Shown piece after piece: positions 3,383 through 46,391 of a stretch of 64,000 nucleotides of DNA. The stretch is from the NCBI RefSeq assembly GCF_050320075.1, contig NZ_CP190018.1; one strand, given 5' to 3'. A program made the translations under genes and the position numbers. Below the pieces are notes generated by a model. It had not been told where the DNA came from and did no database searches. It saw nothing but the letters and a program-made list of their open reading frames with translations. Origin of the DNA: Escherichia coli. GTDB lineage: Bacteria; Pseudomonadota; Gammaproteobacteria; Enterobacterales; Enterobacteriaceae. Numbering within the stretch: the stretch's first letter is position 1; every line of letters begins with the position of its first letter.

Positions 3383-3415
3383 TAAGAATCGGGGCTTTCG
3401 CCCCGAAGAAATGGA

Positions 3416-4213: not shown

Positions 4214-4260
4214 TGTACTGCACCCATTTTGTTGGACGATGAAATGGAATAGCCCCTAAT

Positions 4261-5630: not shown

Positions 5631-5656
5631 CTGTCCAACTTTTTGGGGTCAGTACA

Positions 5657-6807: not shown

Positions 6808-8190
6808 TCAACCTGCCACACTCCCCCACACCAGTTGCCCTTTATGGAACGTCGCCGTTCTCGGCGAGATACGCGCCACCGCCTCGGCGGAACAGGAGGC
6901 GTCCACCAGCACAAAGCTGGCATCATCCTGCGCTTTGGGCCACACGCGCTCGCCTTTTTCGTTGAGCGGCAATACATCGCCAGTGGCTAAAAACAGCGAG
7001 CGGGAGAGGTTCTGTTCGTTAGGACGAATATAGAGCTGCGCGTACAGATTGGCTTTTTCCAGCATGTCGCCCAGGCCGTAAGGCGACCAGTGGTCGATAA
7101 CGCTGTCGGTGCCGGTCATCACTTTTACGCCTTTGTCGTGCAACTGTTTGAGCGGCATATGCAGCGTGCCAATCGGCACCGTCGAGGCGATAGAAATTTG
7201 CTGCGCCGCCATCCGGTGCGCCAGTTCATCTACCTGTTGCTCATTGAGCGTTGCCAGCGCAAAGGCGTGGCTGATGGTCAGCTTGCCCTTCAGTTGCGGC
7301 GTTTTCTCCACCGTTTCAACCATATAATTGATGGCTGCCACGCCTGCCGGAGTGGTTTCGTGCAGGTGAATATCAACGCCTTTGTCGTAGTCCAGCGCAA
7401 TCTGGAACATGGTGTCGAGGGATTTTTCCATCGCGCCATCAACACTGGTCGGGTCCAGCCCGCCGACGTAATGCGCCCCCGCCTGCATCGCTTCGCGCAT
7501 TAAGGGTTCTGATTTCGACAGCAGCAAACCGTGCTGCGGGAAGGCGACAATTTCACACTCGAAGCCCGCCTGACGTCGCGCCAGAACCGCCTGCAAATTT
7601 TGCAGATTTTTCAGGCCGGAAACCGGTTCGATATTGCAGTGGCTGCGGGAAATGGTAGTGCCTTTCGACTGCAATAAATCAATCAGTTTTTCCGCCCTTT
7701 CCTGAGTGTACGGTTGCAACTCCGGCAGCATTTTCTGCTCGAGTTTGATCATGTCCTGGATGGTGGTGCATGCCGGACGATTGAGCGAGCGCCACGGCCC
7801 GCCGTAGAAGGTTTTGTCGAGATGAATATGCATGTCGCGGGTGGTGGGCAGCATCAGCTTACCGCCAGCGTCATAGTGCGGCAGCGTGGCGTCCGGATGC
7901 TGATTGTTCTCGCGCAGTGCAACAATTTTGCCGTTCTGAATTTCCACAGTCTGGCGCGCCGTGCGGGTCTGCACCGCCACGCCATTTTCGTAGTCAAAAC
8001 CGGTTTCCAGCAACACGTTGTCGAGATAGTAGTGCGGGTCAGTGATTTTCATGGTGTTATTCGCGTCGCAGTGGGTTGTGCCAGAGACTGCCGCATGGGC
8101 GAGCGGCACAGAGGTACCAAACAGCGCGGCGGCGGTGACCATCTTACCGCTCTGGCTCAGAAACTCACGGCGGCTATTGCTTTCTTTCAT
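6808..8190 (-). CDS. yahJ: Metal-dependent amidohydrolase/deaminase with a twin-arginine signal peptide, 460 aa
   Basis: N-terminus MKESNSRREFLSQSGKMVTAAALFGTSVPLAHA has an SRRxFL Tat motif and an AxA cleavage site. The body carries amidohydrolase-like HxH and metal-ligand motifs. Length and context match YahJ. Confidence 0.75.
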   Translation of the reverse strand: MKESNSRREFLSQSGKMVTAAALFGTSVPLAHAAVSGTTHCDANNTMKITDPHYYLDNVLLETGFDYENGVAVQTRTARQTVEIQNGKIVALRENNQHPDATLPHYDAGGKLMLPTTRDMHIHLDKTFYGGPWRSLNRPACTTIQDMIKLEQKMLPELQPYTQERAEKLIDLLQSKGTTISRSHCNIEPVSGLKNLQNLQAVLARRQAGFECEIVAFPQHGLLLSKSEPLMREAMQAGAHYVGGLDPTSVDGAMEKSLDTMFQIALDYDKGVDIHLHETTPAGVAAINYMVETVEKTPQLKGKLTISHAFALATLNEQQVDELAHRMAAQQISIASTVPIGTLHMPLKQLHDKGVKVMTGTDSVIDHWSPYGLGDMLEKANLYAQLYIRPNEQNLSRSLFLATGDVLPLNEKGERVWPKAQDDASFVLVDASCSAEAVARISPRTATFHKGQLVWGSVAG

Positions 8191-8199
8191 CTTACGTCC

Positions 8200-9150
8200 T
8201 TACGTTTTAATAATATGGGTGCCCGTTTCACCGCGCAGCGCCGCAAGCAGGCATTCCGGCGTGGTGATAATCACTTCTTTGCCGCCCTGTTCCAGGAACG
8301 TCAGGCTGGCGATGATTTTTGGCAACATGCTGCCAGGCGGAAAATGCCCTTCCTGCATATAGCGGGTCATGGTGGCAATATCCACCCGATCGAGCGCCTG
8401 CTGCTGCGGTTTGCCAAAGTGAATACACACTTTTTCGACGCCAGTGGTGATCACCAGAATGTCGGCGTGAATTTCACGGGCCAATAGCGCGGTAGAGAGA
8501 TCTTTGTCGATAACCGCGTCCACGCTTTGGTAATCCCCCGCTTCACTGCACACCACCGGAATTCCGCCACCGCCCGCGCCAATCACCACAAAGCCTTGTT
8601 GGATCAGCGCCTTAATGGCAGGTGCTTCTACAATACGTTGCGGTTCCGGCGAGGCGACCACGCGGCGATAGCCCCGTCCGGCATCTTCAACAAAACGCCA
8701 GTCAGGGTTTGCCTTTTGTAATTCGTCACGCTGGCTGTCACTAAAGAATGCGCCGATGGGCTTGGTGGGATGAGCAAAACCCGGATCGTTTTTATCCACT
8801 TCCACCTGAGTCACCACGGTGACGGCTTTTTTCTCGCCATGACGCGCCAGTCGGTTGTTCAGCGCCTGTTGGATCAAGTAGCCAATGCCGCCTTGCGTAT
8901 CCGCCACACAGTTCGCCAGCGGCGTTAAGGGCAGCCCTTCGCGCTCGTGGGCAATCTCCGCGCGGCGTAAATCCAAACCGACCTGCGGTCCGTTGCCGTG
9001 GGTCAGCACAATGTCGTAATCGGAAGCCAGCATTTCCAGCACCGTATCGGCGACGGCTTTCACCGCCTCCGCCTGATGCTCAATCGACTGGCTGGCGTTA
9101 TCTTTGATAATGCTGTTGCCACCAATGGCAACGACCACAAGTTCTTTCAT
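8200..9150 (-). CDS. yahI: Carbamate kinase, 316 aa
   Basis: MKELVVVAIGGNSII... and the amino-acid-kinase fold are typical of carbamate kinase. Start taken at the internal ATG, giving 316 aa; the track ORF extends to 9267. Confidence 0.8.
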   Translation of the reverse strand: MKELVVVAIGGNSIIKDNASQSIEHQAEAVKAVADTVLEMLASDYDIVLTHGNGPQVGLDLRRAEIAHEREGLPLTPLANCVADTQGGIGYLIQQALNNRLARHGEKKAVTVVTQVEVDKNDPGFAHPTKPIGAFFSDSQRDELQKANPDWRFVEDAGRGYRRVVASPEPQRIVEAPAIKALIQQGFVVIGAGGGGIPVVCSEAGDYQSVDAVIDKDLSTALLAREIHADILVITTGVEKVCIHFGKPQQQALDRVDIATMTRYMQEGHFPPGSMLPKIIASLTFLEQGGKEVIITTPECLLAALRGETGTHIIKT

Positions 9151-9245
9151 ATTGTTATGTCCGCTACAGAGGGTGATGGGGTTATGAGAGTGAGGTTGCC
9201 CCTCTCCCCAGAAGGAAGAAGGGATCGTAAGGTGCAGTTGGAGGG

Positions 9246-10664
9246 TCAGACGCCGTAACGTTCGCACCAGCCAAGAATGGCTTTCTCGAAGCAGGCGAAT
9301 GGTGGATGCACAATGCCCGCGCCAATCATGCCAACGCCCGCATCTTTATGGGCAATGGCGGTGTTGATCACCGGCAGAATGCCGCTACTGCCCACGCGGG
9401 TGATGTCGATTGCCGACGGCACGCCCATAAAACCGAGCAGCGGAATGGTGACGTTGGGGTTTTCACCGAGAGTGATTTCGCGCATCTGACGGGAGAAATC
9501 GATAGCCTCTTCCACCGTGCCGCCCACCAGCGCGACGATCGCGGGCGCGGTAGCCATAGCAAATCCACCAATGCCGTAGGTTTCGGTGATGGCGCTGTCG
9601 CCAATATCCAGCCCCGAATCTTCCGGCTTATAACCGGCAAACATCGGGCCGATCACCTGCTGCGCCGGACCGGTAAACCATTGCCCCGGTAATCCGCTGA
9701 CCCGCAGGCCGAACTCGACGCCGTTACGCGCCATCGTGGTGACCACGGTGCTGTATTCGATGCCGTGCGCCGCATCCATCGCCGCTTTACACATCGCCAT
9801 CCACGTCGGGCCGGAGAAGTAGTCGCTGCTGGCGACAAACTCAAACACTTCGCGCTGTTGCTCGACGGAATAACCTGCCTGAATAATCCCCGGCGTCAGC
9901 GCCTGAATCAGCAGCGTCGTCCCGGCGTTATTACGGTTATGGCATTCATCGCCCATATGCAGCGCCTGCGCCAGCATTAAGCGCAGATCGATTTCGCCGA
10001 TAATTTTCATCGCGTCGCGCAGCATTGGCCCCTGCACATCGCGCATCCAGTTGAGGCGGTCAATCACGCTCTGGTCGTTAGCGCCCATACGCAAAATCTT
10101 CGCCATCTGCTCGCTCATATTGGTGTAAGCGATGTTGCCGTAGGTTTTGTTTTTTACGATGTGCATAAACATCGAGGCCGAGGTAACACCTGCCATCGAT
10201 CCCACACAGTCGTGTTCATGGCACGGCGAGAAGGTGATCTCCCCGGAGGCCGCCAAGTCAGCCGCCTCGTCGAGATCTTTCGCCAGCCCTTCGAACACCA
10301 GCGCCCCGGTGACCGCGCCTTTCATTGCGCCGCACATTTTTTCCCAGGTCACTGGCGGCCCGGCGTGAAGAATGGTTTTCGGCGTCATTCCCGGCACCAC
10401 GTTAATCGCCTGATCAAAACCAATCAGCACCGGATGCGACTGGATAATGCGCTCCAGCGCCTGCTGGTTAGCGGCGGCGATTTTGTCTGCCAGCGGCGAA
10501 TCGGCAATGTTATCCAGCGCCTGCACCACCTGCATATTGCCCTGCCCCGGCGGCGTCCAGTCGAGTTGGGTCACTTCTACATGCTGCTTTTTCAAATCAT
10601 CGCTAAACATGGCGATGCCGACGTTAATAACGTTCAACGGTTGGCTAAACAGTGACTGGCTCAT
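9246..10664 (-). CDS. yahG: DUF1116-family protein (YlbE-like), 472 aa
   Basis: Length and position match yahG. The stop overlaps the yahF start by 1 nt, suggesting translational coupling. Confidence 0.7.
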   Translation of the reverse strand: MSQSLFSQPLNVINVGIAMFSDDLKKQHVEVTQLDWTPPGQGNMQVVQALDNIADSPLADKIAAANQQALERIIQSHPVLIGFDQAINVVPGMTPKTILHAGPPVTWEKMCGAMKGAVTGALVFEGLAKDLDEAADLAASGEITFSPCHEHDCVGSMAGVTSASMFMHIVKNKTYGNIAYTNMSEQMAKILRMGANDQSVIDRLNWMRDVQGPMLRDAMKIIGEIDLRLMLAQALHMGDECHNRNNAGTTLLIQALTPGIIQAGYSVEQQREVFEFVASSDYFSGPTWMAMCKAAMDAAHGIEYSTVVTTMARNGVEFGLRVSGLPGQWFTGPAQQVIGPMFAGYKPEDSGLDIGDSAITETYGIGGFAMATAPAIVALVGGTVEEAIDFSRQMREITLGENPNVTIPLLGFMGVPSAIDITRVGSSGILPVINTAIAHKDAGVGMIGAGIVHPPFACFEKAILGWCERYGV

Positions 10665-12211
10665 CAGGCTTCCTCCCCTTTGCAGATAAATTCACGCGCC
10701 AGCAATCCGGTATTGGTGCTGCTGCTTGCCAGAATTACCCCAGCATCAAGCAGCATCTGGCTTTGTTGTTCTAACGATGGCGTATCGAGATCGGTACCCA
10801 GCACATAGGCGAGAATGATCAACTCGCGCCCTTCGGCAGCGGCGATCGCTTTCGCCTCTTTGATCGCCTCGATGGTGGAACCGACCGGATCTTCATGCGA
10901 TCCAAACCCGAGCACAAAATCCATCACGATCACCGCCACTTCTGGATCGTGCGCCTCTTCGATCAAGCGGCTGATACGGTTGGTGGGGTCAATCATTGGA
11001 TGCGGCTTGCCGTTGGTGAAGTCGTCATCGCCAAAGTCGAGGAAGGTGTGTTTGATGCTGCGGTTGATATCTTGCAGGCGGAATTCAGGATCGGGCTGAA
11101 TGTTGCTGTAGACATCGCCATGTTTTTCCATCACCGCGAACATGGTTTCGTCACACAGCGTACCGCCGCAGAACAGGCCACGAATGTATTTCTGTTGCGG
11201 CTTCAGGCGAGCGCGCACGTCAGCAATCAATGGCTGGTTCAGGGTATGCAGATCGAGATGTTCCTGTTTCACGCCGGAGAGCATCACCGCTTTCAGCGCC
11301 GCTTCTTTGCTGCCGCGGGCAAACTTTAGCCCCTGCTCATCCACTGGCGTTTCGCCACGACCGAGGAAGCAGACCACCACCGGCTTGCGGCAGGCGCGTG
11401 CGCGTTCCAGCACTTTGCGGGCCACCGCAGGCGCAGGCGGTTTGGAGATAAGCACAATAATTTCAGTTTGCGGATCGTTTTCCAGCATCCCGATGGCGTC
11501 GAGCATCATCAGGCCGCCGATTTTCTCGCTCAGGTCGCGCCCGCCGGTGCCGATCAGTTGCGAAACGCCGCCGCCAAATTCATGGATACGGACGCTCAGC
11601 TCCTGGCTACCGGTGCCGGATGCGCCAACAATGCCGATGTTGCCGCGACGCACGGCGTTACCAAAGCAGAGCGCCGCGCCGTTGATAATCGCCGTACCGC
11701 AGTCTGGCCCCATCATCAGCAGCCCTTTTTCGTGGGCCAACTGTTTGAGCGCCAGTTCATCTTCAACTGAGACGTTATCGGAAAACAGCATCACGTTAAG
11801 ATCGTTTTGCAGCGCCTGACGCGCTTCGCGAGCGGCAAACAGACCGTTGACCGAAATCACCGCCAGGTTACTTTCCGGGATATGCTTTTTGGCGCTGGCA
11901 ATAGTGGCGTAACGCGCCTCGTGCGGGCCGCTTTGCGCTTTGCTGTTGAACAGTTCTTCAATCTCCACCAGCAACTGCTCGTTGTCTGCGCCCGATTTAC
12001 CATTGATGACAATCATCAGGTCACCGTTTTTCGCCTGCTCCAGCTCCGGCGTCAGCAGCCCTAAATTCTTCAGCACGCCTTTGTTCATTTCGGTCGCCAT
12101 CGCCACAAATGCCTGCTCGACGCCGTCAAGTTTATTTGCACGCGTGGAGATAGACATCAGCGAGACAGAATCAAAATAGGTATTCGGTTTAATGACTATT
12201 TTAACTGACAT
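10664..12211 (-). CDS. yahF: FdrA-like protein with a CoA-ligase/succinyl-CoA-synthetase-alpha-like fold, 515 aa
   Basis: Rossmann/CoA-binding style motifs (GIVGASGTGSQ, GxGG). Length and context match YahF, the FdrA paralogue. Confidence 0.7.
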   Translation of the reverse strand: MSVKIVIKPNTYFDSVSLMSISTRANKLDGVEQAFVAMATEMNKGVLKNLGLLTPELEQAKNGDLMIVINGKSGADNEQLLVEIEELFNSKAQSGPHEARYATIASAKKHIPESNLAVISVNGLFAAREARQALQNDLNVMLFSDNVSVEDELALKQLAHEKGLLMMGPDCGTAIINGAALCFGNAVRRGNIGIVGASGTGSQELSVRIHEFGGGVSQLIGTGGRDLSEKIGGLMMLDAIGMLENDPQTEIIVLISKPPAPAVARKVLERARACRKPVVVCFLGRGETPVDEQGLKFARGSKEAALKAVMLSGVKQEHLDLHTLNQPLIADVRARLKPQQKYIRGLFCGGTLCDETMFAVMEKHGDVYSNIQPDPEFRLQDINRSIKHTFLDFGDDDFTNGKPHPMIDPTNRISRLIEEAHDPEVAVIVMDFVLGFGSHEDPVGSTIEAIKEAKAIAAAEGRELIILAYVLGTDLDTPSLEQQSQMLLDAGVILASSSTNTGLLAREFICKGEEA

Positions 12212-19657: not shown

Positions 19658-20245
19658 ATGCCCAAATTGGGGATGCAGTCGATCCGGCGCAGACAACTGA
19701 TCGACGCCACGCTGGAAGCAATAAATGAAGTGGGCATGCACGATGCAACGATCGCGCAGATCGCCCGCCGTGCAGGCGTTTCTACGGGGATCATCAGCCA
19801 CTATTTCAGGGACAAAAATGGTCTGCTGGAAGCAACCATGCGCGATATCACCAGTCAGCTGCGTGACGCGGTTTTGAATCGATTACATGCACTTCCGCAG
19901 GGCAGTGCAGAGCAGCGATTATAGGCGATTGTTGACGGGAATTTCGATGAAACGCAGGTCAGTAATGCTGCGATGAAAGCCTGGTTGGCGTTTTGGGCCA
20001 GCAGTATGCATCAGCCAATGCTTTACCGTTTGCAGCAGGTGAGCAGCCGCCGCTTGTTGTCGAATCTGGTGAGCGAATTTCACCGCGAGTTACCGCGCCA
20101 ACAGGCACAGGAAGCGGGCTACGGCCTTGCCGCGCTGATTGACGGATTATGGCTGCGCGCGGCACTGAGCGGCAAACCGCTGGATAAACCTCTCGCACAC
20201 TCGCTGACCCGTCACTTTATTACTCAGCATTTACCCACCGATTAA
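19658..20245 (+). pseudogene. betI: betI (TetR-family choline-responsive repressor) interrupted by an in-frame TAG at 19922-19924
   Basis: Translation [50 protein letters not shown]...GSAEQRL stops at TAG, then continues in the same frame ([12 protein letters not shown]...[10 protein letters not shown]) to the expected end. The track splits it into 19640..19924 and 19973..20245. Confidence 0.8.
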
Positions 20246-31424: not shown

Positions 31425-32294
31425 TCAATCATGTATTTTTACAGCAAGACAACCACGAACAAATTCAGGATTAAAATGTTTTACCGACTCCCCAACATAA
31501 CCCAAATCAAGCGAACTAATTTGTGCCATTTCTTTCTCTGTCAGTGAGAAATCCCAGATAGCAAAATTTTCTTCGATACGCTGTTGATGTGTCGATTTCG
31601 GAATAACGACCACTCCCCGTTGAATATTCCAACGCAGAATGACTTGAGAAATCGATTTTTGATGGGCATCTGCAATACTCTGAAGCAGATTATTTTCAAA
31701 GGGTTTATGTCGTCCACCACCTAACGGAGCCCATGCTTCAGGCTGCACGTTATAATACTTCATGGTTGCCAGCGCCTCTGGTTGGGCAAAATAGGGATGC
31801 AACTCGACCTGGTTGACCATCGGTTTAACTCTTACCGTTTCACAAAAGTTCGCCAGAACATGAGGATAGAAATTGGAAACCCCAATTGCTTTTAATTTGC
31901 CCTCTTCATAGGCATCTTCGAGTGCACGCCACGCACTGAAATAATCGCGCATAGCCTGGTGCAATAAATAGAGGTCGAAGTATTCTAGTCCCGATTTTTT
32001 TAATGATGCTTCAATACCTGCTTTTGCCGTATCCTGATTCAACATATCCTGCACCCACAATTTAGACGTTATAAATAACTCATCTCGGGTACATAAACCT
32101 TCAGATATAGCTTCACGAACGGCTTCACCGACGGCATCTTCATTACCGTATACCGCTGCAGTGTCGATGAGTCGATAACCCGTGCGGATAGCATTCAACA
32201 CTGACTGTTTGCACACGTCTTTATCGGTAACCTGAAAAACACCAAATCCCATCATCGGCATTTTCAGATTGTTACTTAATACGGAAAATTCCAC
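31425..32294 (-). CDS. Aldo-keto reductase (NADPH-dependent), about 289 aa
   Basis: AKR motifs (GFGVFQ, IDTAAVYGNE, LYLLHQ, GVSNF). Paralogue of the ORF at 38340..39191. Probable GTG start 7 nt after a GGAGGG ribosome-binding site; the track start is 32309. Confidence 0.75.
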   Translation of the reverse strand: MEFSVLSNNLKMPMMGFGVFQVTDKDVCKQSVLNAIRTGYRLIDTAAVYGNEDAVGEAVREAISEGLCTRDELFITSKLWVQDMLNQDTAKAGIEASLKKSGLEYFDLYLLHQAMRDYFSAWRALEDAYEEGKLKAIGVSNFYPHVLANFCETVRVKPMVNQVELHPYFAQPEALATMKYYNVQPEAWAPLGGGRHKPFENNLLQSIADAHQKSISQVILRWNIQRGVVVIPKSTHQQRIEENFAIWDFSLTEKEMAQISSLDLGYVGESVKHFNPEFVRGCLAVKIHD

Positions 32295-32508: not shown

Positions 32509-33399
32509 GTGCGATATGACAAAGAATTAACGGAGAATGTGATGATCAGGCAGAAGATTCTACAGCAGCTCCTGGAGTGGATTGAGTGCAATCTTGAGCA
32601 CCCTATTTCAATCGAAGATATCGCACAGAAATCTGGCTACAGCAGACGCAACATCCAGCTTCTGTTCCGAAATTTCATGCATGTGCCTTTGGGAGAATAC
32701 ATTCGCAAACGAAGGCTTTGTCGTGCCGCCATTCTTGTCCGACTCACCGCGAAATCTATGCTTGATATTGCACTCTCTTTACATTTTGACTCACAGCAGT
32801 CATTCAGCCGCGAATTTAAAAAGTTATTCGGCTGCTCTCCCCGTGAATACCGCCACCGTGATTATTGGGATCTCGCAAATATCTTCCCTTCTTTTTTAAT
32901 ACGTCAACAGCAAAAGACGGAGTGTAGATTAGTCAACTTTCCTGAGACACCTATTTTTGGCAATTCATTTAAATATGATATTGAAGTATCGAATAAATCA
33001 CCGGATGAAGAAGTCAAACTGCGACGTCATCATTTAGCCAGATGTATGAAGAATTTTAAGACGGATATCTATTTCGTCTCCACATTCGAACCGTCAACAA
33101 AATCGGTCGATTTGCTCACAGTTGAAACTTTTGCCGGTACGGTATGCAAACAAACCGATTCAGAGATGTCGAAAGAGTGGACAATTAACCGAGGACTGTA
33201 TGCCTCTTTCCGCTATGAAGGTGAGTGGGAGCACTACCCTGAATGGGCGCGAAACCTCTATCTGATGGAATTACCTGCCAGGGGGTTAGCCAGAGTGAAC
33301 GGCAGTGATATTGAGCGATTTTATTACAATGAAAACTTCGTCGAAATTGATAGCAATAACATTGTTTGCGAAATTTTTATCCCCGTTCGCCCGGTTTAG
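32509..33399 (+). CDS. ykgA: AraC-family regulator with a C-terminal GyrI-like effector-binding domain
   Basis: N-terminal AraC HTH (ISIEDIAQKSGYSRRNIQLLFRNFMHVPLGEYIRKRRL) plus a C-terminal domain of about 150 aa. The symbol is assigned by position only. Confidence 0.55.
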   Translation: MRYDKELTENVMIRQKILQQLLEWIECNLEHPISIEDIAQKSGYSRRNIQLLFRNFMHVPLGEYIRKRRLCRAAILVRLTAKSMLDIALSLHFDSQQSFSREFKKLFGCSPREYRHRDYWDLANIFPSFLIRQQQKTECRLVNFPETPIFGNSFKYDIEVSNKSPDEEVKLRRHHLARCMKNFKTDIYFVSTFEPSTKSVDLLTVETFAGTVCKQTDSEMSKEWTINRGLYASFRYEGEWEHYPEWARNLYLMELPARGLARVNGSDIERFYYNENFVEIDSNNIVCEIFIPVRPV

Positions 33400-33471
33400 C
33401 CTGTAAATCCATCACATAAGATTTACCCTACCCTGCCACCGTCTAATCGGTACCAGGGTAGGTATTCAGTA

Positions 33472-33511
33472 AATAATGGCGCTGCGCATGTCAACGCCAT
33501 TATTATTTATT
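33472..33511. terminator. Stem-loop with T-rich tail between the convergent ykgA-like gene and eaeH
   Basis: Perfect 10-bp inverted repeat AATAATGGCG...CGCCATTATT followed by ATTTATT. Confidence 0.45.
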
Positions 33512-33523
33512 ACATCGTCGTTT

Positions 33524-36500
33524 TTATTTCTCCTCAGCACCTTCAGTATCTGCAGGAACGGCGTTAATTGTCACAGTCACTGGTTTCATTTCATACCCTC
33601 CATATGTCAAAGAGTTGAATGTGAATGTGTATGTACCTGGCTTGTTGGTACTAAATGTACGCGTGATTTTCCCGCTCGCGAAATGGTCATTTTTCGACGG
33701 CAGGAACTGATAATCCGCCTCTGTCACCCCTTCCGGAGCCTCAATGTCGACCCACATGGTTCCTCCTACGGGGTTGACACCCGACATCAGAGTAACCGTC
33801 AGTGTTGCAGTAGTCTTCCCGTCCGCCACCAGAGAATCTACACGCTCTGGAGATGCAGCGAGCTCCGCGTTTTTATCATCCGCGACGAATTTAGATTCGG
33901 CAGTTTTCGTCGATTCCTGACCGTCGGCCTGTTCCACTTTCGCCGTGAGTGTATATGTCGCTGCGACAGTGGTCGTGGCGGTGAAAATAGCCTGTCCTTG
34001 CTCATTCGTTGTCGCCGTCCCATCGGGATCCAGAGCTAAATTTGCCGGGCTAGCAGTCAGCGTCACCTCGCTATCTTTCAACAGGTTGTTATTGGCATCA
34101 GTCACCGTAACTTTATACGTCTGTTTGGCTTTGCCATCCGCCAGTGCATAGTTGCCAATCACCTCAATACCGGAGACGGTTGCGGTCGCCTTATCGGCCA
34201 CAAACGTTATAGTCTGCGCATCCGAAGGCTGGTCATTTCCTGCCGATGCCGTGATCTCATAGGTTCCGGCAGTCACGGAAACCACCTGCAACTCTGCTTT
34301 CCCCTCATCGTTGGCTTTCACCCAGACATTATCGCCAGTAAGCGGCTTGACACCCCGGGGCAGATTAAAGGTCACCAGAGTGCCTGGAACAGGGTTACCG
34401 TTTTTATCCTCAACGGTCGCCGTCAGCGTAAAGGCATCTTTGCCGTTTGCCACTTTTTGAACGGCGGTGTCAACCTGCAGGTTTGCCTGACCGGTGCTGG
34501 CATCCGCGTTGAATTTCACCGTGACCGTCTTCTGAGAGTTTTTCACCGCGGCCGCGATTTCAAGTTCCCCTGCAACGGTTGATATCAACTCAATATCCGC
34601 TTTACCTGCCGCATTGGTTGTTACTGTATTCCCCGTCTTGCTAGTCACACCCTGCGGTAAAGTCAGCGTAACTTCTTGCCCCTGCAACGGGTTACCATAG
34701 CTGTCCACGACGGTCAGGGTTATCTGGTTAGCAGACTGTCCATTAGCCAGTTGGTTATTAACCTTCACTGTCATATCACGAATCTCAGCCTGAGAAGCGT
34801 CCCCTGCAACGTTCAGCACCAGTGGCTGAGCAACAGCATTTTGGCCGTTCACTCGCGGCATCACAGACAACTGACCCGCGGCAGATCCCAGCGTTAAGGT
34901 CGACACGTAGACCCCATTACCTTTCTCTGTCCAGTTTCCTGCTGAAGGACGCTCACTCCCCGTGCTGGCGGCACCGCTAAACACTGGTGCATCTGGCTTC
35001 AGCCCGGTGACCGGATTCCCGTACGCATCCTTCACGGTGAAGGTGAGTTCCGTCGTCGTTTTAACCGTTGGAGTTTTATTGTCCGCAACAAGCGTAGAAT
35101 TCGCTGATGACATCTCTCCGGCAATAACAGTCAGCTGCGCGGCTTCGGTGGCTGCTGGCTGGCCGTTGAAGAGCGGCATGACACGAAGCTCGCCCGTCTT
35201 TCCGCCTGTAGTTAACGTAGCAACATAGGAACCGTCACCTTTTTCGGTCCAACTGGAAACGGTCGCCCCTTCAGAGGCGGTCCCCGTCAAACTTGCCGAC
35301 AACGAAAGACCACTGATAGCGTTGCCATGTGCATCTTTCGCCACCAACGTCACGGTTGTGCTTTCGCCGGCTTTTACGTGATCTTCCGCGACAGAGACTT
35401 TCGACTGGTTTGAAGATAACGCATCAGCCACCACGGTTACTTTTGCCGCATTTGCTGCCGCATCCTGTCCATTTAGCTTCGGCATAACTTCTAATTCACC
35501 CGCCGTAGAGCCGAGAGTAATCTGCGCAGTCCACGTCCCATCACCATTATTTGTCCAGCCAGATGCCGTAGAACCAACAGCAGCGGCACCCGCTAATGAC
35601 GGCGCTTCCGGCGTGAGGCTGGTCACAGGGTTGTCATTGGCATCTTTTGTCGACCAGATTGCCGTAAGCGTACCGCCGACCACCGGTTTATCAGGATTCA
35701 GGGTGATGGACGAATGTGCTGCATCAAGCGGCCCGGCAACAAACTTCAGCGTTTGTTGTAATGTGCCCAGCTGATACTGCTCGCTGAAGGCGCGCACAAC
35801 AACGTTTCCGGCACGGGTCGAAGAAACCGTGGCGCTGTAAACCCCTGGTTTTATTTCCGAAATGGCACCAACGGTAACACCATTAGTGTCTTGCGGAACA
35901 AGTCGCAGGCGGCTGGCTTCTCCCGTCACCGGATTACCCTCGGAGTCCACCGCAGTCAGCGTCAGCGTGTAGGCTTGCTGACCATCAGCAACCACGTCAC
36001 CTGACGGCTCGTTAGCGCTCAGGGTGGAGTTTGCCACATCCATCATCGTGGCCCGCAGTTCTGCAGTGACGGTTTTGCTCATGCCATCAACGCTAACAGT
36101 AATCGTTGCCTCACCTGACTGCGTTCCGGTCGTAAAGACAGACTGGTACACCCCTGCTTCAGTTTCGGTGAACTCACCCAGTGTGGGCTGTGCCTGTGAT
36201 TTAGTGGCCTTCAGGGTACGAGTCACAATATTTCCAGCCGGTTTGAAGGTTAGTTCAGTCTTGATCTGCTCCTTCATGCCCGTGACTGGCTGACCCTCGG
36301 CGTCGCGCATAGACAGCACCAGCGGCTTTTGCTCATTACCGTTAGCAAGCATTTGAATACGGCTCTGACCGTCAAGCGTTAACGCCGTGCGATCGGCGCT
36401 CATACCAGCTCCGGTAATAACCACTTCTGTCTGCACACGTTTCGAGGCATTGCCTTTGTTATCGTAGGCAACTGCTGAAATCGCATAATAATTGTCTTTG

Positions 36501-37774
36501 CCTGGACGATAAGCCGGGAGCGTTACTTGCCACTGACTACCCTGACCGGTAATTTTGCCACCTTCAGCCAGTAATGACGGCGCTTCCCACTGCACATTTT
36601 TCAGTCCGTGTGTTGCTTTGCTGACCACAAGCCCCAGGGAAACCGTCTGACCGCCCTTACCTTCAATACGCTCAGGCAGAGCAATACGGATCACTTCAGA
36701 TTTGCGGTACTCAAGAACGATGTTGTTATTACGCTCAACCAGGTCATAGCGGCTGCCTGCCAGCATTCGACGCTCGCGAATGCTGTCTGTATCGAGTTGT
36801 TTTTGCAGAGGTTCGCCAATCCGATAATTAACTTCCAAGCCAAAGCGAGTGTCATTCTCACCACTCTTGCCCTGCTTATGCCCGGCACTCAGGGTCAGAA
36901 GAGGCACTGGCGTGTAATTCACTTCAGCGGTAATCGCATGTGGATCTTTCTGGCGTTTATCTTTGCCAAACAGCCCGACTTCATCGCCATAATACTGCTC
37001 ATACATCAGGCTTGCGCCAAGCTGCGGCCAGGCGGGTAAATAGCCCTCAGCACGAATATCCCAGCCATTCGCCGGGCGTTCCTGATAATCCTCAACATCC
37101 GGCGATTTTTTCCAGCCAGAAGCCCGGATATAACCATTGGCGCTCAATTTCAAATAATCACGCCAGTATTCCGCACCAACACCAATGCGGGTATGACTAC
37201 GGGATAAATCATGGTCGATAAAGGTGTTCACCCCCGCCATCCAGTCATTTCCTGAAAAATGACGCCAGCCAAAACCAATATTTGACTGAGTACGATCGTC
37301 GGTACGATGTATTGCCCCCTGAGTGAACAACATATTTGTCGGTGTATCATAAATCGGATAAAGCATTTCCAGCGAAGAATCCTTCAGCGAGAAATCTTTA
37401 TCGACATTCAGTTTGACGCGCGCAGTACCGTATTTCCCGAGCCACTCCTGAATTTCCTGGTTAGCTTTAGCGGTGGCCATTCCGGTAATAAAGTTACGTG
37501 TCGCATCGCTATCTGGCTGACTGCTTAAAAATGTCCCGGCATTTGCGGCAAACGACGCGACATTTTTCTCCACATTATTATCAGCAGCTACTGTGGTATT
37601 TTCCATGCTCAAACGTGGCTGAACCGCATGCTGCGCACGTGCTGCCATTACTGGCGTAAAGGTGACAGCGAGTGGAAAAAGAACCTGAACAGAGATATTT
37701 GCCCACGCCACGCAGCGGGCCAGAACTGAATAACGAAATCGTGGTTGTTTATGACCTGTTTTATAACGTGACAT
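33524..37774 (-). CDS. eaeH: Intimin/invasin-family inverse-autotransporter adhesin with tandem bacterial Ig-like domains, 1416 aa, apparently full length
   Basis: N-terminal signal and beta-barrel region, then many repeated Ig-like modules (for example GWTNNGDGTWTAQITLGSTAGELEVMPKLNGQ / SWTEKGDGSYVATLTTGGKTGELRVMPLFNGQ / NWTEKGNGVYVSTLTLGSAAGQLSVMPRVNGQ). Single uninterrupted ORF. Confidence 0.85.
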   Translation of the reverse strand: MSRYKTGHKQPRFRYSVLARCVAWANISVQVLFPLAVTFTPVMAARAQHAVQPRLSMENTTVAADNNVEKNVASFAANAGTFLSSQPDSDATRNFITGMATAKANQEIQEWLGKYGTARVKLNVDKDFSLKDSSLEMLYPIYDTPTNMLFTQGAIHRTDDRTQSNIGFGWRHFSGNDWMAGVNTFIDHDLSRSHTRIGVGAEYWRDYLKLSANGYIRASGWKKSPDVEDYQERPANGWDIRAEGYLPAWPQLGASLMYEQYYGDEVGLFGKDKRQKDPHAITAEVNYTPVPLLTLSAGHKQGKSGENDTRFGLEVNYRIGEPLQKQLDTDSIRERRMLAGSRYDLVERNNNIVLEYRKSEVIRIALPERIEGKGGQTVSLGLVVSKATHGLKNVQWEAPSLLAEGGKITGQGSQWQVTLPAYRPGKDNYYAISAVAYDNKGNASKRVQTEVVITGAGMSADRTALTLDGQSRIQMLANGNEQKPLVLSMRDAEGQPVTGMKEQIKTELTFKPAGNIVTRTLKATKSQAQPTLGEFTETEAGVYQSVFTTGTQSGEATITVSVDGMSKTVTAELRATMMDVANSTLSANEPSGDVVADGQQAYTLTLTAVDSEGNPVTGEASRLRLVPQDTNGVTVGAISEIKPGVYSATVSSTRAGNVVVRAFSEQYQLGTLQQTLKFVAGPLDAAHSSITLNPDKPVVGGTLTAIWSTKDANDNPVTSLTPEAPSLAGAAAVGSTASGWTNNGDGTWTAQITLGSTAGELEVMPKLNGQDAAANAAKVTVVADALSSNQSKVSVAEDHVKAGESTTVTLVAKDAHGNAISGLSLSASLTGTASEGATVSSWTEKGDGSYVATLTTGGKTGELRVMPLFNGQPAATEAAQLTVIAGEMSSANSTLVADNKTPTVKTTTELTFTVKDAYGNPVTGLKPDAPVFSGAASTGSERPSAGNWTEKGNGVYVSTLTLGSAAGQLSVMPRVNGQNAVAQPLVLNVAGDASQAEIRDMTVKVNNQLANGQSANQITLTVVDSYGNPLQGQEVTLTLPQGVTSKTGNTVTTNAAGKADIELISTVAGELEIAAAVKNSQKTVTVKFNADASTGQANLQVDTAVQKVANGKDAFTLTATVEDKNGNPVPGTLVTFNLPRGVKPLTGDNVWVKANDEGKAELQVVSVTAGTYEITASAGNDQPSDAQTITFVADKATATVSGIEVIGNYALADGKAKQTYKVTVTDANNNLLKDSEVTLTASPANLALDPDGTATTNEQGQAIFTATTTVAATYTLTAKVEQADGQESTKTAESKFVADDKNAELAASPERVDSLVADGKTTATLTVTLMSGVNPVGGTMWVDIEAPEGVTEADYQFLPSKNDHFASGKITRTFSTNKPGTYTFTFNSLTYGGYEMKPVTVTINAVPADTEGAEEK

Positions 37775-38324
37775 TGAGATAATTTCCTGATGAACGAATT
37801 AACGAACATAGGCAGACACAAATAATGGCGTCTGCTTGTCAGAAAAACCGGGGATTTCCCGGTTTCCTTTTCCGCAGAAAAGGAAATACCTTTATGTAAG
37901 AAAGTACACCGCCACCTAATATATCCAGTGTCTGTAGCCACTCATCAGGTGGTTGGGCGCGGGATTATATTTTTATTTATGGGTAAAAATTTAGCTTTTT
38001 GTGCAAGTTATTAAATAGATACTTAAGTTATATTTCTTACTCTGCGGGCAGTGAATAATTCATTATTAAGAGTGAATAATAATGACCCGTCTTTAATTAA
38101 CTGCTATTGGGAGTACGTCGAAGTGAGTATATACGCCAGGATAAACCAATATATTTTTTATGGACATTCATTTATATTCATCGGACTGTAAATTCCGGGG
38201 ATATCGAACTTGCACGACTAATCTCAACCCTCAAACAGATTTATGAATTTTGTTCATAACCCCTGACAAATCCTGCCGTCTAATCGAGCTTTTCCCTTTA
38301 CGTTATGCTTCTCATGAACGATAA

Positions 38325-41248
<2,924 letters not shown>

Positions 41249-41330
41249 CTAAACTTTCAGGAGATTTATTATGAATAAACGTATCCTCACGATTGCGCCA
41301 TTCTTCTTACCGATATTCTGACACACATCA

Positions 41331-42257
41331 TTAACTTTCTATTTTTACTCTTTTCTCCACCATAAAATCAATAAAAGCACGAACTTTAGAGGGCATTCTC
41401 ACCCGTGATGAAACATATATATAAAATCCAGGAAATGAAACGGCCCAATCCTCAAGAATCGGCTGTAACTTGCCCGCATTGATATGTTCAGCGATTGCAA
41501 AATCCAGATGTTGAATGATACCCGTTCCATTCAGCGCCATTCGTATCATGCTTTCGTCATCATTAGAAATATACTTACCTGAAACCTCTATTTCGAACTC
41601 TTCATTACCCCCCACAACATTAGAAAACTCCCATGCAGAGAGTGCACCGCTACTTTTATGCCGCAACCGAAGGCAATTATGGTTACTCAGTTCCTGAGGC
41701 GTTTCAGGAATACCGTGTTCTTTTAAATAATCTGGCGATGCCACAGTAACCAGTTTAATAAGCGGAGAAACAGGAACGGCAGTCATATGCTCATCCAGTC
41801 CTTGCTCAAGACGTATGCCCACATCACAGCCGTCCGCAATAATGTTAGATAAACCGTCATCCATAATGAGTTCTATCTTTGTTTTGGGGTAACGAGTAAG
41901 AAACTCGCCAATATGAGGCTCAACAAGCATCCGTGCTGCAACACGGGAGGAATTTATTCTCAACAGGCCTGTAGGTTCAAGTTGGGTATCACCAACATCT
42001 TTCAAAGCATCATCAATTTGCCCCAAAGCCGACACCAGCACTTCATACAGACGCTGTCCTTCCTCAGTAAGCGACATATTGCGGGTCGTACGGTATATCA
42101 GCTTGGTGTTAAGACGTTCCTCAAGAGATTTTAAATTCTGGGACAATGCGGCCCGCGTAATACCCATTTCAGAAGCGGCTCTGGAAAAACTGCCGGCACG
42201 AACAATAAGCGCAAACCAGGCAAGAGAAGGCAAAATTGAAGGCTCTATTTTCATCAT
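41331..42257 (-). CDS. LysR-family transcriptional regulator, about 308 aa
   Basis: HTH LAWFALIVRAGSFSRAASEMGITRAALSQNLKSLEERL. Divergent from the hydrolase/OYE genes. Start uncertain (internal MMKIEPS). Confidence 0.75.
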   Translation of the reverse strand: MMKIEPSILPSLAWFALIVRAGSFSRAASEMGITRAALSQNLKSLEERLNTKLIYRTTRNMSLTEEGQRLYEVLVSALGQIDDALKDVGDTQLEPTGLLRINSSRVAARMLVEPHIGEFLTRYPKTKIELIMDDGLSNIIADGCDVGIRLEQGLDEHMTAVPVSPLIKLVTVASPDYLKEHGIPETPQELSNHNCLRLRHKSSGALSAWEFSNVVGGNEEFEIEVSGKYISNDDESMIRMALNGTGIIQHLDFAIAEHINAGKLQPILEDWAVSFPGFYIYVSSRVRMPSKVRAFIDFMVEKRVKIES

Positions 42258-42413
42258 TGTAAACCTTAACTTAACACTGTGATAGATATTAGACCATTGA
42301 TGATAACCAATACAAGTCATACTATTACGCCGTTCTCGATATGAACACGAATGCCAGTTGCGGATAATAGAAATGATATTTAAATCTGTTTAGGCAAATC
42401 CCCGGAGCTTGAA

Positions 42414-43334
42414 ATGAAAACTGTTTCGATAAAACATACTTACTGGGATATAGCTGCTGATATCTATTTCCCTGACGATTTTAATAGTGAAAAAAAGTAT
42501 CCTGCCATTATCAGCGCCCATCCAATTGGAAGCTGCAAAGAACAGACATCGGGTAGTGTGTATGGTGCCGCCCTGGCAAAAGCTGGTTTTATCGTCATTG
42601 CTTTTGATGCCAGTTTTCAGGGAAGCAGCGGTGGAGAACCGCGTTATCTGGAAGATCCAACAATGCGAGTAAAAGACTTCAGCATTGTCGTTGATTACCT
42701 TACCACCTTACCTTACGTTGATGCCGGGCGTATTGGTGTACTGGGTATTTGTGGTGGAGGTGGATATGCCATTAATGCCGCAATGACAGAACGTCGAATT
42801 AAAGCTATTGGTACTGTCACGGGTGCAAACTACGGGCGTCTTATGCGTGAGGGATTTACAGCGTTTAATCCTATCGGAGCACTCGAAGCGATGGCGCAAC
42901 AAAGAACAGACGAAGCTAACGGCGCAAAACTTCGCGTAGATGATTTACTCCCCTCTTCTCCGGATGCAGCTCTTGAAGCGGGATTAACAGAAATAGACCT
43001 TTTTGAAGCCACAGAATATTATCGTTCGCCACGAGGCTGTGCACCTAATGGGGTAAATCGTTCGCTATTCTCACATCAGACTGTTGCCGTGGGTTGGGAT
43101 GCATTTCATCTTGCAGAAGTCCTGTTAACTCAACCAATAATGGTTGTGGTGGGCGATAGAGTGGGCGCATTTGGTGCCTACCGTGACGGCTGCGAAATTA
43201 TTGGCCGCGCTGCCTCAAAACATAAAGAGCTGGTCGTGGTTGAAGGTTATTCACATTACGACCTGTATGATAAGCCAGAACCTGTGAAACAGGCACTCGA
43301 AAAATTAATTCCTTTTTATAAAACACATTTGTAA
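42414..43334 (+). CDS. Alpha/beta-fold hydrolase (dienelactone-hydrolase-like), cytoplasmic, 306 aa
   Basis: Nucleophile-elbow-like LGICGGGGYA and a C-terminal HxD region (GYSHYDLYD). No signal peptide. Paralogue of 61616..62752. Confidence 0.65.
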   Translation: MKTVSIKHTYWDIAADIYFPDDFNSEKKYPAIISAHPIGSCKEQTSGSVYGAALAKAGFIVIAFDASFQGSSGGEPRYLEDPTMRVKDFSIVVDYLTTLPYVDAGRIGVLGICGGGGYAINAAMTERRIKAIGTVTGANYGRLMREGFTAFNPIGALEAMAQQRTDEANGAKLRVDDLLPSSPDAALEAGLTEIDLFEATEYYRSPRGCAPNGVNRSLFSHQTVAVGWDAFHLAEVLLTQPIMVVVGDRVGAFGAYRDGCEIIGRAASKHKELVVVEGYSHYDLYDKPEPVKQALEKLIPFYKTHL

Positions 43335-43507
43335 TAATCTTACAGGGAGATTCCTTATCTCCCTGACATTTATCCTTTATTGACTACACAACAATAATAA
43401 AATTACTCAAAAAGAATTCTATTAAAGGAAAAAAAGCATCAAAAAGTAGCAACTCAACTTATTAAGATTATACGCATTAAAATCAGATAAACATTTGAGG
43501 TATTGTT

Positions 43508-44650
43508 ATGACAAATAAACACCCATCATTGTTTTCTCCTTTTATGCTGACAGAAAAAATAAAGCTACGTAATCGTATCGTTATGGCTCCTATGACAACC
43601 TGGTCAGCTAATCCTGATGGAACCATCTCTGAGCAAGAACTCGAATTTTATAAACGTCGCTCACAAAATGTTGGTTTAGTAATAACAGGATGCACCTATG
43701 TCACGCCAAGCGGCATTGGGTTTACTCATGAATTTGCCGCGTATGACGACCGTTTCATTAACAGCCTTGAAAAGTTAGCAGCTGCAGCCAAAAGTGGCGG
43801 TGCTCCGGCTATTTTGCAGATTTTCCACGCTGGTAATAAAGCCATCCCGGAGCTTGTGCCAAATAACGATGTTATTAGTGCCAGCGCATCAAGCGTAAAA
43901 TCTGGTGACTTTATGAAGAGAGTGGTACAAAGCAGGGAAATGACTGAAAACGAAATTCAGGAAACCATTAGAGCATTCGGAGATGTCACAAAAAGGGCGA
44001 TTAAAGCAGGTTTTGATGGCGTTGAACTTCATGGTGCGCACGGATTCCTTCTACAGAATTTCTTCTCCCCTCTATTTAACCAGCGTAATGACCGATGGGG
44101 AGGAGATCTCGAAAGACGTATGCGATTCCCGCTGGCCGTATTACAGGAAGTAAAAAATGTAGTCTATGAATATGCGACAAAGCCCTTTGCCATCGGTTAC
44201 AGAATATCTCCTGAAGAATCTGCAACAGGGGGGCTGCGGATAGAGGATACTTATAAACTCCTTGATCGGCTCATTGCATCCGGTATTTCGTATATACATA
44301 CCTCGCTGGTCAGTATTAACGATAGCTACCCTGTTGAGTCGCCAAATGGCCCCCGAACTATTGAATTGATTTTAAATCATATTGCAGGCAGAGTGCCGGT
44401 AATCGCTGCAGGTAAAATACGCACACCGTCTCAGGCTCAAGAAGCAATTTCCACTGGCCTGCCACTTGTTGCGATCGGTAAAGGGCTGGTGATAAATCCA
44501 GAATGGGTGACTTTAGCTGAATCAGGTAGAAGCCATGAAATTCAAACAACCCTTAATCCACAACTTGTTCCTGAATTAACCATTCCGGATAAACTATGGG
44601 ATCAAATTCAGGCATCGAAAGGAACTGGCTGGTTTCCGTTAATGGATTAA
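43508..44650 (+). CDS. Old-Yellow-Enzyme family NADH:flavin oxidoreductase, 380 aa
   Basis: OYE motifs: RIVMAPMTT, GFDGVELHGAHGFLLQNFFSP, and a C-terminal TIM-barrel GKG segment. Confidence 0.8.
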   Translation: MTNKHPSLFSPFMLTEKIKLRNRIVMAPMTTWSANPDGTISEQELEFYKRRSQNVGLVITGCTYVTPSGIGFTHEFAAYDDRFINSLEKLAAAAKSGGAPAILQIFHAGNKAIPELVPNNDVISASASSVKSGDFMKRVVQSREMTENEIQETIRAFGDVTKRAIKAGFDGVELHGAHGFLLQNFFSPLFNQRNDRWGGDLERRMRFPLAVLQEVKNVVYEYATKPFAIGYRISPEESATGGLRIEDTYKLLDRLIASGISYIHTSLVSINDSYPVESPNGPRTIELILNHIAGRVPVIAAGKIRTPSQAQEAISTGLPLVAIGKGLVINPEWVTLAESGRSHEIQTTLNPQLVPELTIPDKLWDQIQASKGTGWFPLMD

Positions 44651-45985: not shown

Positions 45986-46036
45986 TTCAAAATTCGACGA
46001 ATTAACGATATTTGTCTGATTAATAATCAGACCGGA

Positions 46037-46075
46037 TTAATGTTGGTGTATTTATTACACCAGCATTAATTTTCC
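46037..46075 (+). terminator. Probable rho-independent terminator of ykgM-ykgO
   Basis: 14-bp stem TTAATGTTGGTGTA / TACACCAGCATTAA with one mismatch, loop TTTAT, then TTTTCC. Confidence 0.55.
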
Positions 46076-46391
46076 TGGGGATGTATCTTCCTGTTCATTT
46101 AAAGTCAACTGCCTGACGTTTCTCTCCGAATATTCCATTATATTAATGTTGACTTGTTGACCAGGTGCGCCCTGTATGCTGGCATCAACTCTCTTTTAGA
46201 CTGAACACGCCACTCAGTTTCCTCCCTTTGCGACGCAGCCTGCATTTACACTCAAACGGTTAAGATGATAAATGTGGTAAATCTGTTGGTACTGACATAA
46301 AAACGTTTACGCCACAGGAACGGCCTGATCCACCGGTAACCCCATCGCCGACGTTCGAGTGCCAGTTAGAGTAACGCGCACAGATGACTGA

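Follow-up and report, generated by a model that had tools for sequence, protein, structure and literature searches.

The window analysed here, a stretch of 64,000 nucleotides of Escherichia coli DNA (contig NZ_CP190018.1), carries on its minus strand one long uninterrupted reading frame, preceded by an intergenic region:

33524..37774, minus strand: fdeC (eaeH) coding sequence, intact, 1416 codons and a stop (open reading frame list, translation, match to annotated fdeC)
37775..38339, no strand assigned: intergenic region of 565 bp, common to fdeC and a divergent aldo/keto reductase gene (annotation, composition profile)

The initial annotation had proposed a single intact 1416-codon frame of the FdeC/EaeH type at 33524..37774. 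The coordinates were exact and translation revealed zero internal stops; no strand had been given, and the frame was found on the minus strand. Its DNA matches fdeC as annotated in E. coli YZLc1-3 at 100% identity (NZ_CP123240.1, a chromosome record identical to the first 50,000 bases of the window), and start and stop are the same in the RefSeq annotation of that record, so that both the proposed identity and the intactness of the gene were borne out. Representatives of protein clusters that bear the name FdeC, among them clusters of 3,112 and 17,949 members, are 92-95% identical to the protein at full coverage, while identity to fdeC across thousands of genomes is 92-99%; residues 595-1008 hardly differ from the crystallised FdeC fragment (PDB 4E9L). 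Over its full length the protein thus falls within the range published for the FdeC/EaeH orthologue group (>91% amino acid identity). Among NCBIfam models no FdeC-specific one reached its cut-off, the best matches came from models for the N-terminal part of related inverse autotransporters and lay far under the thresholds set for these; the name FdeC therefore rests on near-identity to the characterised protein and not on a family HMM. The neighbours, taken from the annotation of the identical record, are a reductase/LysR cluster, an AraC-type gene and the rcl genes. This synteny agrees with the locus described by Nesta 2012, and the gene sits, among regulators, reductases and hydrolases, at the conserved chromosomal locus that runs from the ykgR/ykgM side to the rcl side. 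Considering these data, we are highly confident that the gene is fdeC (eaeH) in its functional, full-length form, which encodes a chromosomal adhesin of E. coli belonging to type Ve (the inverse autotransporters). As such it is an ordinary gene, described before, and the finding is already known.

The K-12 counterpart is a pseudogene (Nesta 2012). In XL1-Blue and W3110 only nucleotides 1-876 of fdeC are left, followed by IS3. These first 876 nucleotides of the K-12 eaeH pseudogene (b0297 region), together with the upstream leader, are ~95-96% identical to the sequence in the window, whereas IS3 stands in place of window positions 33147-36898, with loss of the neighbouring AraC-type gene's 3′ end as well as of fdeC nucleotides 877-4251. 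K-12 is also without window positions 38326-44558, a 6.2-kb reductase/LysR/hydrolase cluster. The earlier statement that the gene is interrupted in K-12 is accordingly right as regards the loss of the full-length gene and needs rewording as regards its cause: rather than a simple interruption, it is an IS3-associated deletion of 80% of fdeC.

The encoded protein was divided into the following parts, all on the minus strand:

37640..37774, minus strand: long signal peptide of the Sec type, predicted for aa 1-45 (N-region basic; hydrophobic core at aa 17-45; VMA then AR)
36725..37549, minus strand: inverse-autotransporter β-barrel, aa 76-350 (Pfam PF11924)
36371..36703, minus strand: Ig-like module D0, aa 358-468, equivalent to intimin D00 (PDB 6TQD match)
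34790..36370, minus strand: Ig-like modules D1-D5, aa 469-995, Invasin_D3 type (PF09134)
33869..34789, minus strand: Ig-like modules D6-D8, aa 996-1302, Big_1 type (PF02369)
33527..33868, minus strand: distal module D9, aa 1303-1416, Ig-like tip without a lectin domain (Pfam, AlphaFold2, PDB)

The signal peptide suggested earlier was judged by simple charge and hydropathy rules only, with which it is consistent: residues 1-22 include six K/R and zero D/E, a hydrophobic stretch spans aa 17-45, and V-M-A precedes the likely cleavage site. Pfam recognised the proposed barrel on aa 76-350 (IAT_beta, PF11924) with E 1.9e-110 and 369 bits, the cut-off being 22.3, and the solved barrels of invasin and intimin (PDB 4E1T, 4E1S) align to aa 113-357. 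The long Ig-like array also proved to be present, nine units being recognised by Pfam and the tenth by structure. The latter is the membrane-proximal D0, which gave no Pfam match when tested alone and is matched by intimin D00 (PDB 6TQD; aa 358-474, E 7.8e-13). When tested one by one, all nine units D1-D9 matched Invasin_D3 or Big_1, eight of them above the Pfam cut-off: D1-D5 scored 43.8-55.2 bits each with PF09134 (cut-off 33), D6-D8 63-79 bits each with PF02369, and D9 fell under the Pfam cut-off for Invasin_D3 (29.4 bits, E 1.2e-6). Invasin (PDB 1CWV) aligns to aa 1008-1141. The AlphaFold2 model of D8-D9 is all-beta (pLDDT 85) with an Ig-like β-sandwich fold, its best PDB matches being intimin D0-D1, invasin, InvE and InvD. 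All ten modules lie C-terminal to the barrel (inverted order); an N-terminal PF11924-type barrel followed by an IgSF-fold passenger is what characterises inverse autotransporters according to Heinz 2016, and the count of ten equals the ‘10 Big domains’ given there. Paralogy of the units at the protein level, claimed as clear in the initial annotation, is so only for subsets: with D4 as query, D3 and D5 were found at E 1e-19 and 1e-18, D2 at 6e-6, and D1 and D6 at ~1e-3. The remaining units are linked only through profiles (phmmer/HMM iteration, in which only the first round is independent evidence), and self-blastp of FdeC returned nothing beyond the self-match.

Matches to fdeC occur in 5,077 of 5,426 complete E. 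coli genomes, the gene being full-length in ~85% of complete genomes. The allele in the window is an infrequent one, at least 99% identical at the DNA level in only 118 of 5,082 matching records. Most of its differences from common alleles lie in D6-D9, with amino acid identity of 71-100% by module in a mosaic pattern. Alleles have diversified by mosaic divergence in the distal modules, not by changes in module number. The gene is under purifying selection, with omega of 0.13-0.17 overall, 0.08-0.12 in the barrel and 0.19-0.32 in the distal modules.

Upstream of the start codon the GC content drops to 32-34% (positions 37900-38200 of the composition profile), and the region adjoining fdeC contains a putative structured leader with the following elements:

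37775..37969, minus strand: conserved structured leader of fdeC, of putative function (fold z-score, consensus fold, conservation)
37969-37964, minus strand: perfect TATAAT, ~185 nt before the fdeC start codon, perfectly conserved
37958-37908, minus strand: leader hairpin 0 (consensus fold, simulation)
37885-37864, minus strand: leader hairpin 1 (predicted fold)
37863-37847, minus strand: leader hairpin 2, terminator-like, followed by a U-run (predicted fold)
37846-37839, minus strand: U-run UUUUCUGA, predicted to pair with the ribosome-binding site UCAGGAAA (37790-37783)
37835-37812, minus strand: leader hairpin 3 (predicted fold)

The leader has a fold z-score of -5.2, and the consensus fold of seven Escherichia leaders contains four compensatory pairs. 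In the fast-evolving hairpin 0 all 12 pairs are kept despite 17 substitutions in 41 positions, the simulated probability being ~0.007 in one lineage and 0.14 in another. The leader is single-copy, 97-100% identical and unannotated in each of the 11 full-length matches sampled, and at least 95% identical in 5,036 of 5,038 matching records. A scan of the genome collection with a 20-mer from the leader gave three true Escherichia loci; three further matches in Clostridia/Oscillospiraceae MAGs were discarded as chance. Rfam gave no match over 33300-38400 at E up to 1, and a scan for consensus promoters and terminators found sites no commoner than in shuffled sequences and missed hairpin 2. In the literature search no fdeC RNA thermometer and no ykgR-eaeH intergenic element were found. 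The predicted opening of the ribosome-binding site is gradual (from 0.04 at 25°C to 0.17 at 42°C), and sharp RNA-thermometer behaviour is unsupported by this modelled melting curve. We tentatively put forward the ~185 nt between the TATAAT and the fdeC start as a candidate cis-regulatory RNA, undescribed so far, a proposal that we regard as possible and still somewhat doubtful. It might act as a leader, in which hairpin 2 with its U-run would attenuate transcription and the same U-run UUUUCUGA would pair with the ribosome-binding site UCAGGAAA, as the modelled fold suggests; or it might be a small RNA of ~110 nt ending at the hairpin 2 terminator. For both versions the indications are suggestive only.

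FdeC of ExPEC IHE3034 (ECOK1_0290; PDB 4E9L) and EaeH of ETEC H10407 are the same gene at the same locus, both of 1416 aa, with the barrel, ten Ig-like modules and the flanking regulators and reductases found here, and only allelic differences. Intimin (Eae of EPEC/EHEC) resembles FdeC in its PF11924 barrel, in a first module of the D00 type and in its Ig-like rod, and both are type Ve secretion proteins which need BAM and TAM; invasin of Yersinia and E. coli YeeJ, IatC and IatD have the barrel family and Big_1/Invasin_D3 modules in common with it. With a barrel family and Ig-like passenger common to all of these, and the NCBIfam intimin_all model aligning to aa 62-469, one could take the gene for an intimin or invasin proper, that is, a Tir- or integrin-binding protein causing attaching-effacing lesions or invasion. 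However, that alignment, confined to this N-terminal part, reaches 382 bits where the cut-off is 1400, and the models for IatC, Ilp, YrIlm, Inv and SinH are far below their cut-offs too. Intimin has four Ig modules, LysM and a C-terminal lectin-like Tir-binding domain, and invasin, YeeJ, IatC and IatD end in a C-type lectin-like cap, some with LysM, whereas FdeC has ten modules, its distal domain is modelled as Ig-like, and no LysM, Intimin_C or C-type lectin match was obtained at E up to 0.01. Because it has neither a LysM domain nor a lectin-like tip, FdeC is not an intimin or invasin proper; membership of that family is refuted by these absences and the sub-cut-off HMM score, and the corresponding function is hardly credible. 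In agreement with this, the neighbours (reductase, LysR, AraC and rcl genes) form no LEE context, and FdeC has been placed in a separate subfamily (Heinz 2016). A second reading starts from the initial annotation, in which the tandem Ig-like repeats were called prone to recombinational length variation, with a repeat number that may differ among isolates; in its strong form, repeat recombination or slippage would often alter module number and make fdeC variable in length. Rare length variants do exist: in-register deletions of about one to two modules remove 102 aa in P0073 (D2 to D3), 105 aa in P0100 (D0 to D1), 107 aa in P0106 and 196 aa in P0115, strain Y5 has lost ~650 bp reaching from D6 to D8, with a short, imperfect homology at the junction, and a 1630-aa form has two additional modules. 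But the P0073 junction shows 1 nt of microhomology, the deletions in P0112 and P0119 are out of register, and that in Y5 is frameshifting. The additional modules of the 1630-aa form share no more than 35-43% identity with D3-D5 and so are ancient; none of the 5,426 complete E. coli genomes contains their DNA, and this 12-module form belongs to an Escherichia lineage with E. marmotae-like flanking genes. Within fdeC itself TRF detected no tandem array and blastn no self-match, the longest exact direct repeat is 16 nt (up to 15 in shuffled sequences), and the modules are just 19-43% identical in amino acid sequence; global nucleotide identities of 60-76% between units were set aside as uninformative, since such values are raised artificially by gapped global alignment. 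Gene length is essentially constant in E. coli: the 79 single-piece full-length matches sampled from the 5,426 complete genomes all measure 4,206-4,251 bp, and in 4,585 genomes at least 80% of the gene is covered. By TRF, self-blastn, exact repeats and length survey alike, fdeC does not behave as a length-variable gene with DNA-level tandem repeats, and a locus whose length often changes by such recombination is very improbable. The Ig-like units are old and have diverged past recognition at the DNA level. Repeat number can differ among isolates, as was suggested, yet it does so rarely, by deletions or as the 12-unit form elsewhere, and not by homologous recombination between repeats; the unit count in this gene is ten by Pfam and PDB.

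Our own analysis shows which gene this is and that it is intact, its domain architecture and synteny, the purifying selection acting on it and its distribution in the population; the secretion route, TAM dependence, collagen binding and regulation are taken from the literature on orthologues. On this basis, the FdeC precursor would be exported by Sec via its long N-terminal signal peptide, its N-terminal 12-stranded barrel would insert into the outer membrane aided by BAM and TAM, and the C-terminal passenger would thread outward through the barrel, presumably forming a rod of ten Ig-like β-sandwich modules (~1060 residues) projecting from the cell surface. For CFT073 FdeC, TAM-assisted assembly and a protease-accessible passenger were demonstrated by pulse labelling and proteinase K (Heinz 2016). 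Orthologues are reported to bind epithelial cells and collagens (types I, III, V and VI, Kd ~1e-8 M; Nesta 2012) and to mediate cell-to-cell aggregation, as this one may do as well; H-NS acting on the AT-rich region upstream would normally keep the gene silent, with induction at ≥39°C or by host contact. It could be argued instead that the intact frame is effectively cryptic, being silenced, with aggregation, biofilm or motility rather than host adhesion as the main effect of any expression. The orthologues are indeed expressed only at ≥39°C and silent in standard laboratory conditions; H-NS is named as an fdeC regulator in the title of Easton 2014 (PMC4249167), which the AT-rich upstream region fits, and in the predicted fold the ribosome-binding site is concealed by the leader. 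In APEC IMT5155, moreover, deletion of fdeC raised adhesion and motility at 42°C, so the net effect of fdeC on adherence is context-dependent. Against this stand the strong purifying selection (omega about 0.15), the retention of the full-length gene in most complete genomes, and the collagen and cell binding and contribution to kidney colonisation shown for orthologues (Nesta 2012; Heinz 2016). We consider a cryptic gene unlikely, and FdeC is probably made and adhesive in this strain.

As an adhesin FdeC is conserved broadly in E. coli, and it has been studied as a vaccine antigen; its intactness in this chicken isolate is a matter of routine annotation. The stability of the Ig-like array, combined with mosaic divergence of the distal modules, bears on antigen design, and the structured leader, if functional, could contribute to the restriction of FdeC expression to ≥39°C.

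The gene under study encodes the full-length EaeH/FdeC adhesin that the initial annotation had described as a single intact 1416-codon ORF, and both statements hold. The feature is as follows:

33524–37774, minus strand: fdeC (eaeH), inverse autotransporter adhesin, 1416 aa in the ORF list

Minus-strand translation contains no internal stop; the strand, left unstated initially, matters because plus-strand translation of 33524–37774 yields dozens of stops. In a megablast search of 5,426 complete E. coli genomes, the gene matched at 100% over its full length a gene of YZLc1-3 (source, chicken faeces) annotated as 'fdeC: inverse autotransporter adhesin FdeC', and over its first 50 kb the window agrees base for base with the YZLc1-3 chromosome. 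This is a genuine, previously described gene, and its identification was right. Elsewhere in the window, an IS150 copy (4261–5630) splits a sugar/autoinducer-2 ABC transporter substrate-binding gene (3416–5849), the two fragments of which are annotated as pseudogenes; the identical record also annotates betI (19658–20245), whose product represses the bet choline-glycine betaine operon, as a pseudogene containing an internal stop, and ykgL (46020–46245) as frameshifted.

A Pfam search of the whole protein revealed IAT_beta at aa 76–350 (E 1.9e-110), nine Invasin_D3 stretches and four of Big_1, and no LysM, Intimin_C or lectin domain. Among solved structures, the barrels of invasin and intimin (4E1T and 4E1S) align with aa 113–357 and intimin D00-D0 (6TQD) with aa 358–474, and the FdeC fragment 4E9L is an almost identical match to aa 595–1008. 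The passenger was divided into ten pieces, D0 to D9 outward from the barrel, and each was scanned singly against Pfam.

Modules of FdeC: best Pfam match; identity of the window allele to the major alleles
Barrel: IAT_beta (whole-protein search); 98–99%
D0: no match singly, identity via 6TQD only; 94–99%
D1–D5: Invasin_D3, 44–55 bits (cut-off 33); 87–100%
D6: Big_1 (63–79 bits across D6–D8); 86–96%
D7: Big_1 (same range); 71–100%
D8: Big_1 (same range); 84–90%
D9: Invasin_D3, 29.4 bits, E 1.2e-6, below cut-off; 76–84%

An AlphaFold2 model of D8-D9 (pLDDT 85) comprises two beta-sandwiches, with intimin D0-D1, invasin, InvE and InvD as top PDB matches and no lectin fold among the best ones. Heinz et al. 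(2016) report '10 Big domains' for FdeC, equal to the module count obtained here. The N-terminus carries six K/R and no acidic residues in aa 1–22, a hydrophobic stretch at aa 17–45 and VMA followed by AR, a pattern that, by charge and hydrophobicity only, fits a long Sec leader. Both the barrel and the Ig-like array initially proposed are thus confirmed, and the architecture shown is that of a type Ve adhesin. The description of the units as clearly paralogous stands in part: with D4 as a single-sequence query (round 0), D3 (E 1e-19), D5 (1.4e-18) and D2 (6e-6) were recovered, D1 and D6 reached about 1e-3, and D7–D9 and D0 were not significant. Amino acid identity is 41–43% among D3–D5, 41% between D6 and D7, and 19–38% in other pairs; later HMM rounds, being self-trained, served to define boundaries only.

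By family, the protein is an inverse autotransporter, and by orthology it falls in the FdeC/EaeH group. Assignment to intimin/invasin proper was rejected (NCBIfam intimin_all, 382 against a cut-off of 1400); FdeC lacks LysM and a lectin cap, and the gene lacks the LEE context. Since a scan of the protein gave no FdeC-specific NCBIfam model above its cut-off, the name rests on near-identity to the characterised FdeC. The assembly of the orthologue is enhanced by TAM, and its 100-kDa passenger is protease-accessible (Heinz 2016); it binds epithelial cells as well as collagens I, III, V and VI (Nesta 2012), and immunisation with FdeC is protective in a UTI model, according to the title of the paper. 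For orthologues, expression has been reported only from 39°C upwards, at alkaline pH or upon host contact, and in APEC deletion of fdeC increases adhesion and motility at 42°C. H-NS is named as a regulator of fdeC in the title of Easton (2014), and the AT-rich 565-bp region upstream of the gene (GC down to 32–34%) may be compatible with H-NS binding. A paralogue with about 80% amino acid identity (P0113; compared loci L008, 1501–5745, and L009) occurs in 10–11 plasmid places, in a plasmid-like context with PerC, MarR and ParA neighbours.

The statement that the gene is interrupted in laboratory K-12 holds in substance, the lesion being an IS3-associated truncation; the same pseudogene was described by Nesta et al. 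(2012). In XL1-Blue and W3110, where fdeC is annotated as a partial pseudogene, only nt 1–876 remain, followed by IS3. Alignment to the K-12 locus places IS3 instead of window 33147–36898, that is, the remainder of fdeC, the spacer and the 3' end of the AraC-type neighbour. Also absent from K-12 are a 6.2-kb cluster that lies upstream of fdeC (38326–44558; two aldo/keto reductases, two LysR regulators, an alpha/beta hydrolase and a flavin oxidoreductase) and about 725 bp (31554–32278) inside the downstream aldo/keto reductase gene (31425–32294). Strain Y5 has these same two deletions.

Just upstream of the gene lies a structured region:

37775–37969, minus strand: unannotated fdeC leader with a perfect TATAAT and four hairpins, one of them terminator-like and followed by a U-run

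The 126 nt preceding the ATG fold into three hairpins (MFE -41.8 kcal/mol, z = -5.2). Hairpin 2 (ACCGGG..CCCGGU), followed by U5, resembles a sense-strand intrinsic terminator, and in the predicted fold the U-rich stretch UUUUCUGA is base-paired to the ribosome-binding site UCAGGAAA. Seven chromosomal versions from Escherichia conserve both TATAAT (37969–37964) and the entire leader; the leader is single-copy, with at least 95% identity in 5,036 of 5,038 matching records, and 11/11 sampled full-length matches (97–100% identity) carry no annotated feature. The RNAalifold consensus has 57 pairs, four with compensatory double changes (0–3 in slid controls), and 98.7% of cells are paired versus 40–50% with partners slid, a control biased because the structure was derived from the same sequences; a shuffle control on the pair count was not significant. 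Hairpin 0 keeps 12/12 pairs against the 1630-aa lineage despite 17/41 differing nucleotides (simulated P 0.007), and 10/12 against E69 (P 0.14). No Rfam match was obtained, and literature searches returned nothing on the intergenic region or on an fdeC RNA thermometer; the modelled unpaired probability of the ribosome-binding site rises from 0.04 at 25°C to only 0.17 at 42°C. The leader may act as an attenuator or thermosensor, or it may be a small RNA of roughly 110 nt; we regard it as a lead rather than a finding. In the P0113 paralogue the last roughly 50 nt are kept, another GC-rich hairpin replaces hairpin 1, and hairpin 2 is absent.

The supposition that the repeats are recombination-prone was not supported, as the units are not repeats at the DNA level. 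TRF detected only a trivial 19-nt hexamer run (3.2 copies), self-blastn of the gene found no match between units, and exact direct repeats reach 16 nt at most (longest in shuffles: mean 11.5, maximum 15). RecA-dependent recombination in E. coli is efficient only from roughly 20–30 bp of identity, so homologous unequal exchange is not expected here. The gene matched in 5,077 of the 5,426 genomes (at least 80% covered in 4,585), and 79/79 sampled single-piece full-length matches span 4,206–4,251 bp; database proteins are mostly 1413–1418 aa long, including clusters of 3,112, 3,064 and 17,949 members. The expectation that module number may differ between isolates survives only for rare variants. 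Residues are missing in P0073 (102 aa, from D2 position 38 to D3 position 39, with 1-nt microhomology at the junction), P0100 (105), P0101 (91), P0103 (95), P0106 (107), P0112 (156), P0115 (196) and P0119 (269); part of the mapped deletions are in register, giving hybrid modules, and the rest out of register. In Y5, a deletion of roughly 650 bp from D6 to D8, at imperfect AATAAC..AAC..CTG homology, causes a frameshift with a stop at codon 1012. The long variant is:

6001–10893 of compared loci L003/L004/L005: P0090, 1630-aa FdeC, 234 member sequences

Its 12 modules include two additional ones of Invasin_D3 type, located after D4; only 35–43% identical to D3–D5 and 37% to each other, these two are old. 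Its context is E. marmotae-like (Escherichia lineage, with the upstream sulfatase as in E. marmotae), and the insert DNA had no match in the 5,426 E. coli genomes. Given the uniform length and the rare, mapped variants, the number of modules in E. coli is stable, and its changes are rare and mostly illegitimate deletions.

Allele differences form a mosaic: D7 of the window shares 100% identity with P0014 and 71% with P0020, and for D4 the figures are 87% with P0014 and 100% with both P0002 and P0020. The pattern points to segmental exchange between alleles, concentrated in distal D6–D9 (33527–34789). Only 118 of 5,082 records reach 99% or more DNA identity to the window allele. Compared with E. 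marmotae, the 1630-aa lineage and the plasmid-like paralogue, dN/dS is 0.13–0.17 overall, 0.08–0.12 in the barrel and 0.19–0.32 in D6–D9. Purifying selection acts on FdeC, less strongly at the tip, in agreement with the conservation gradient of Heinz (2016).
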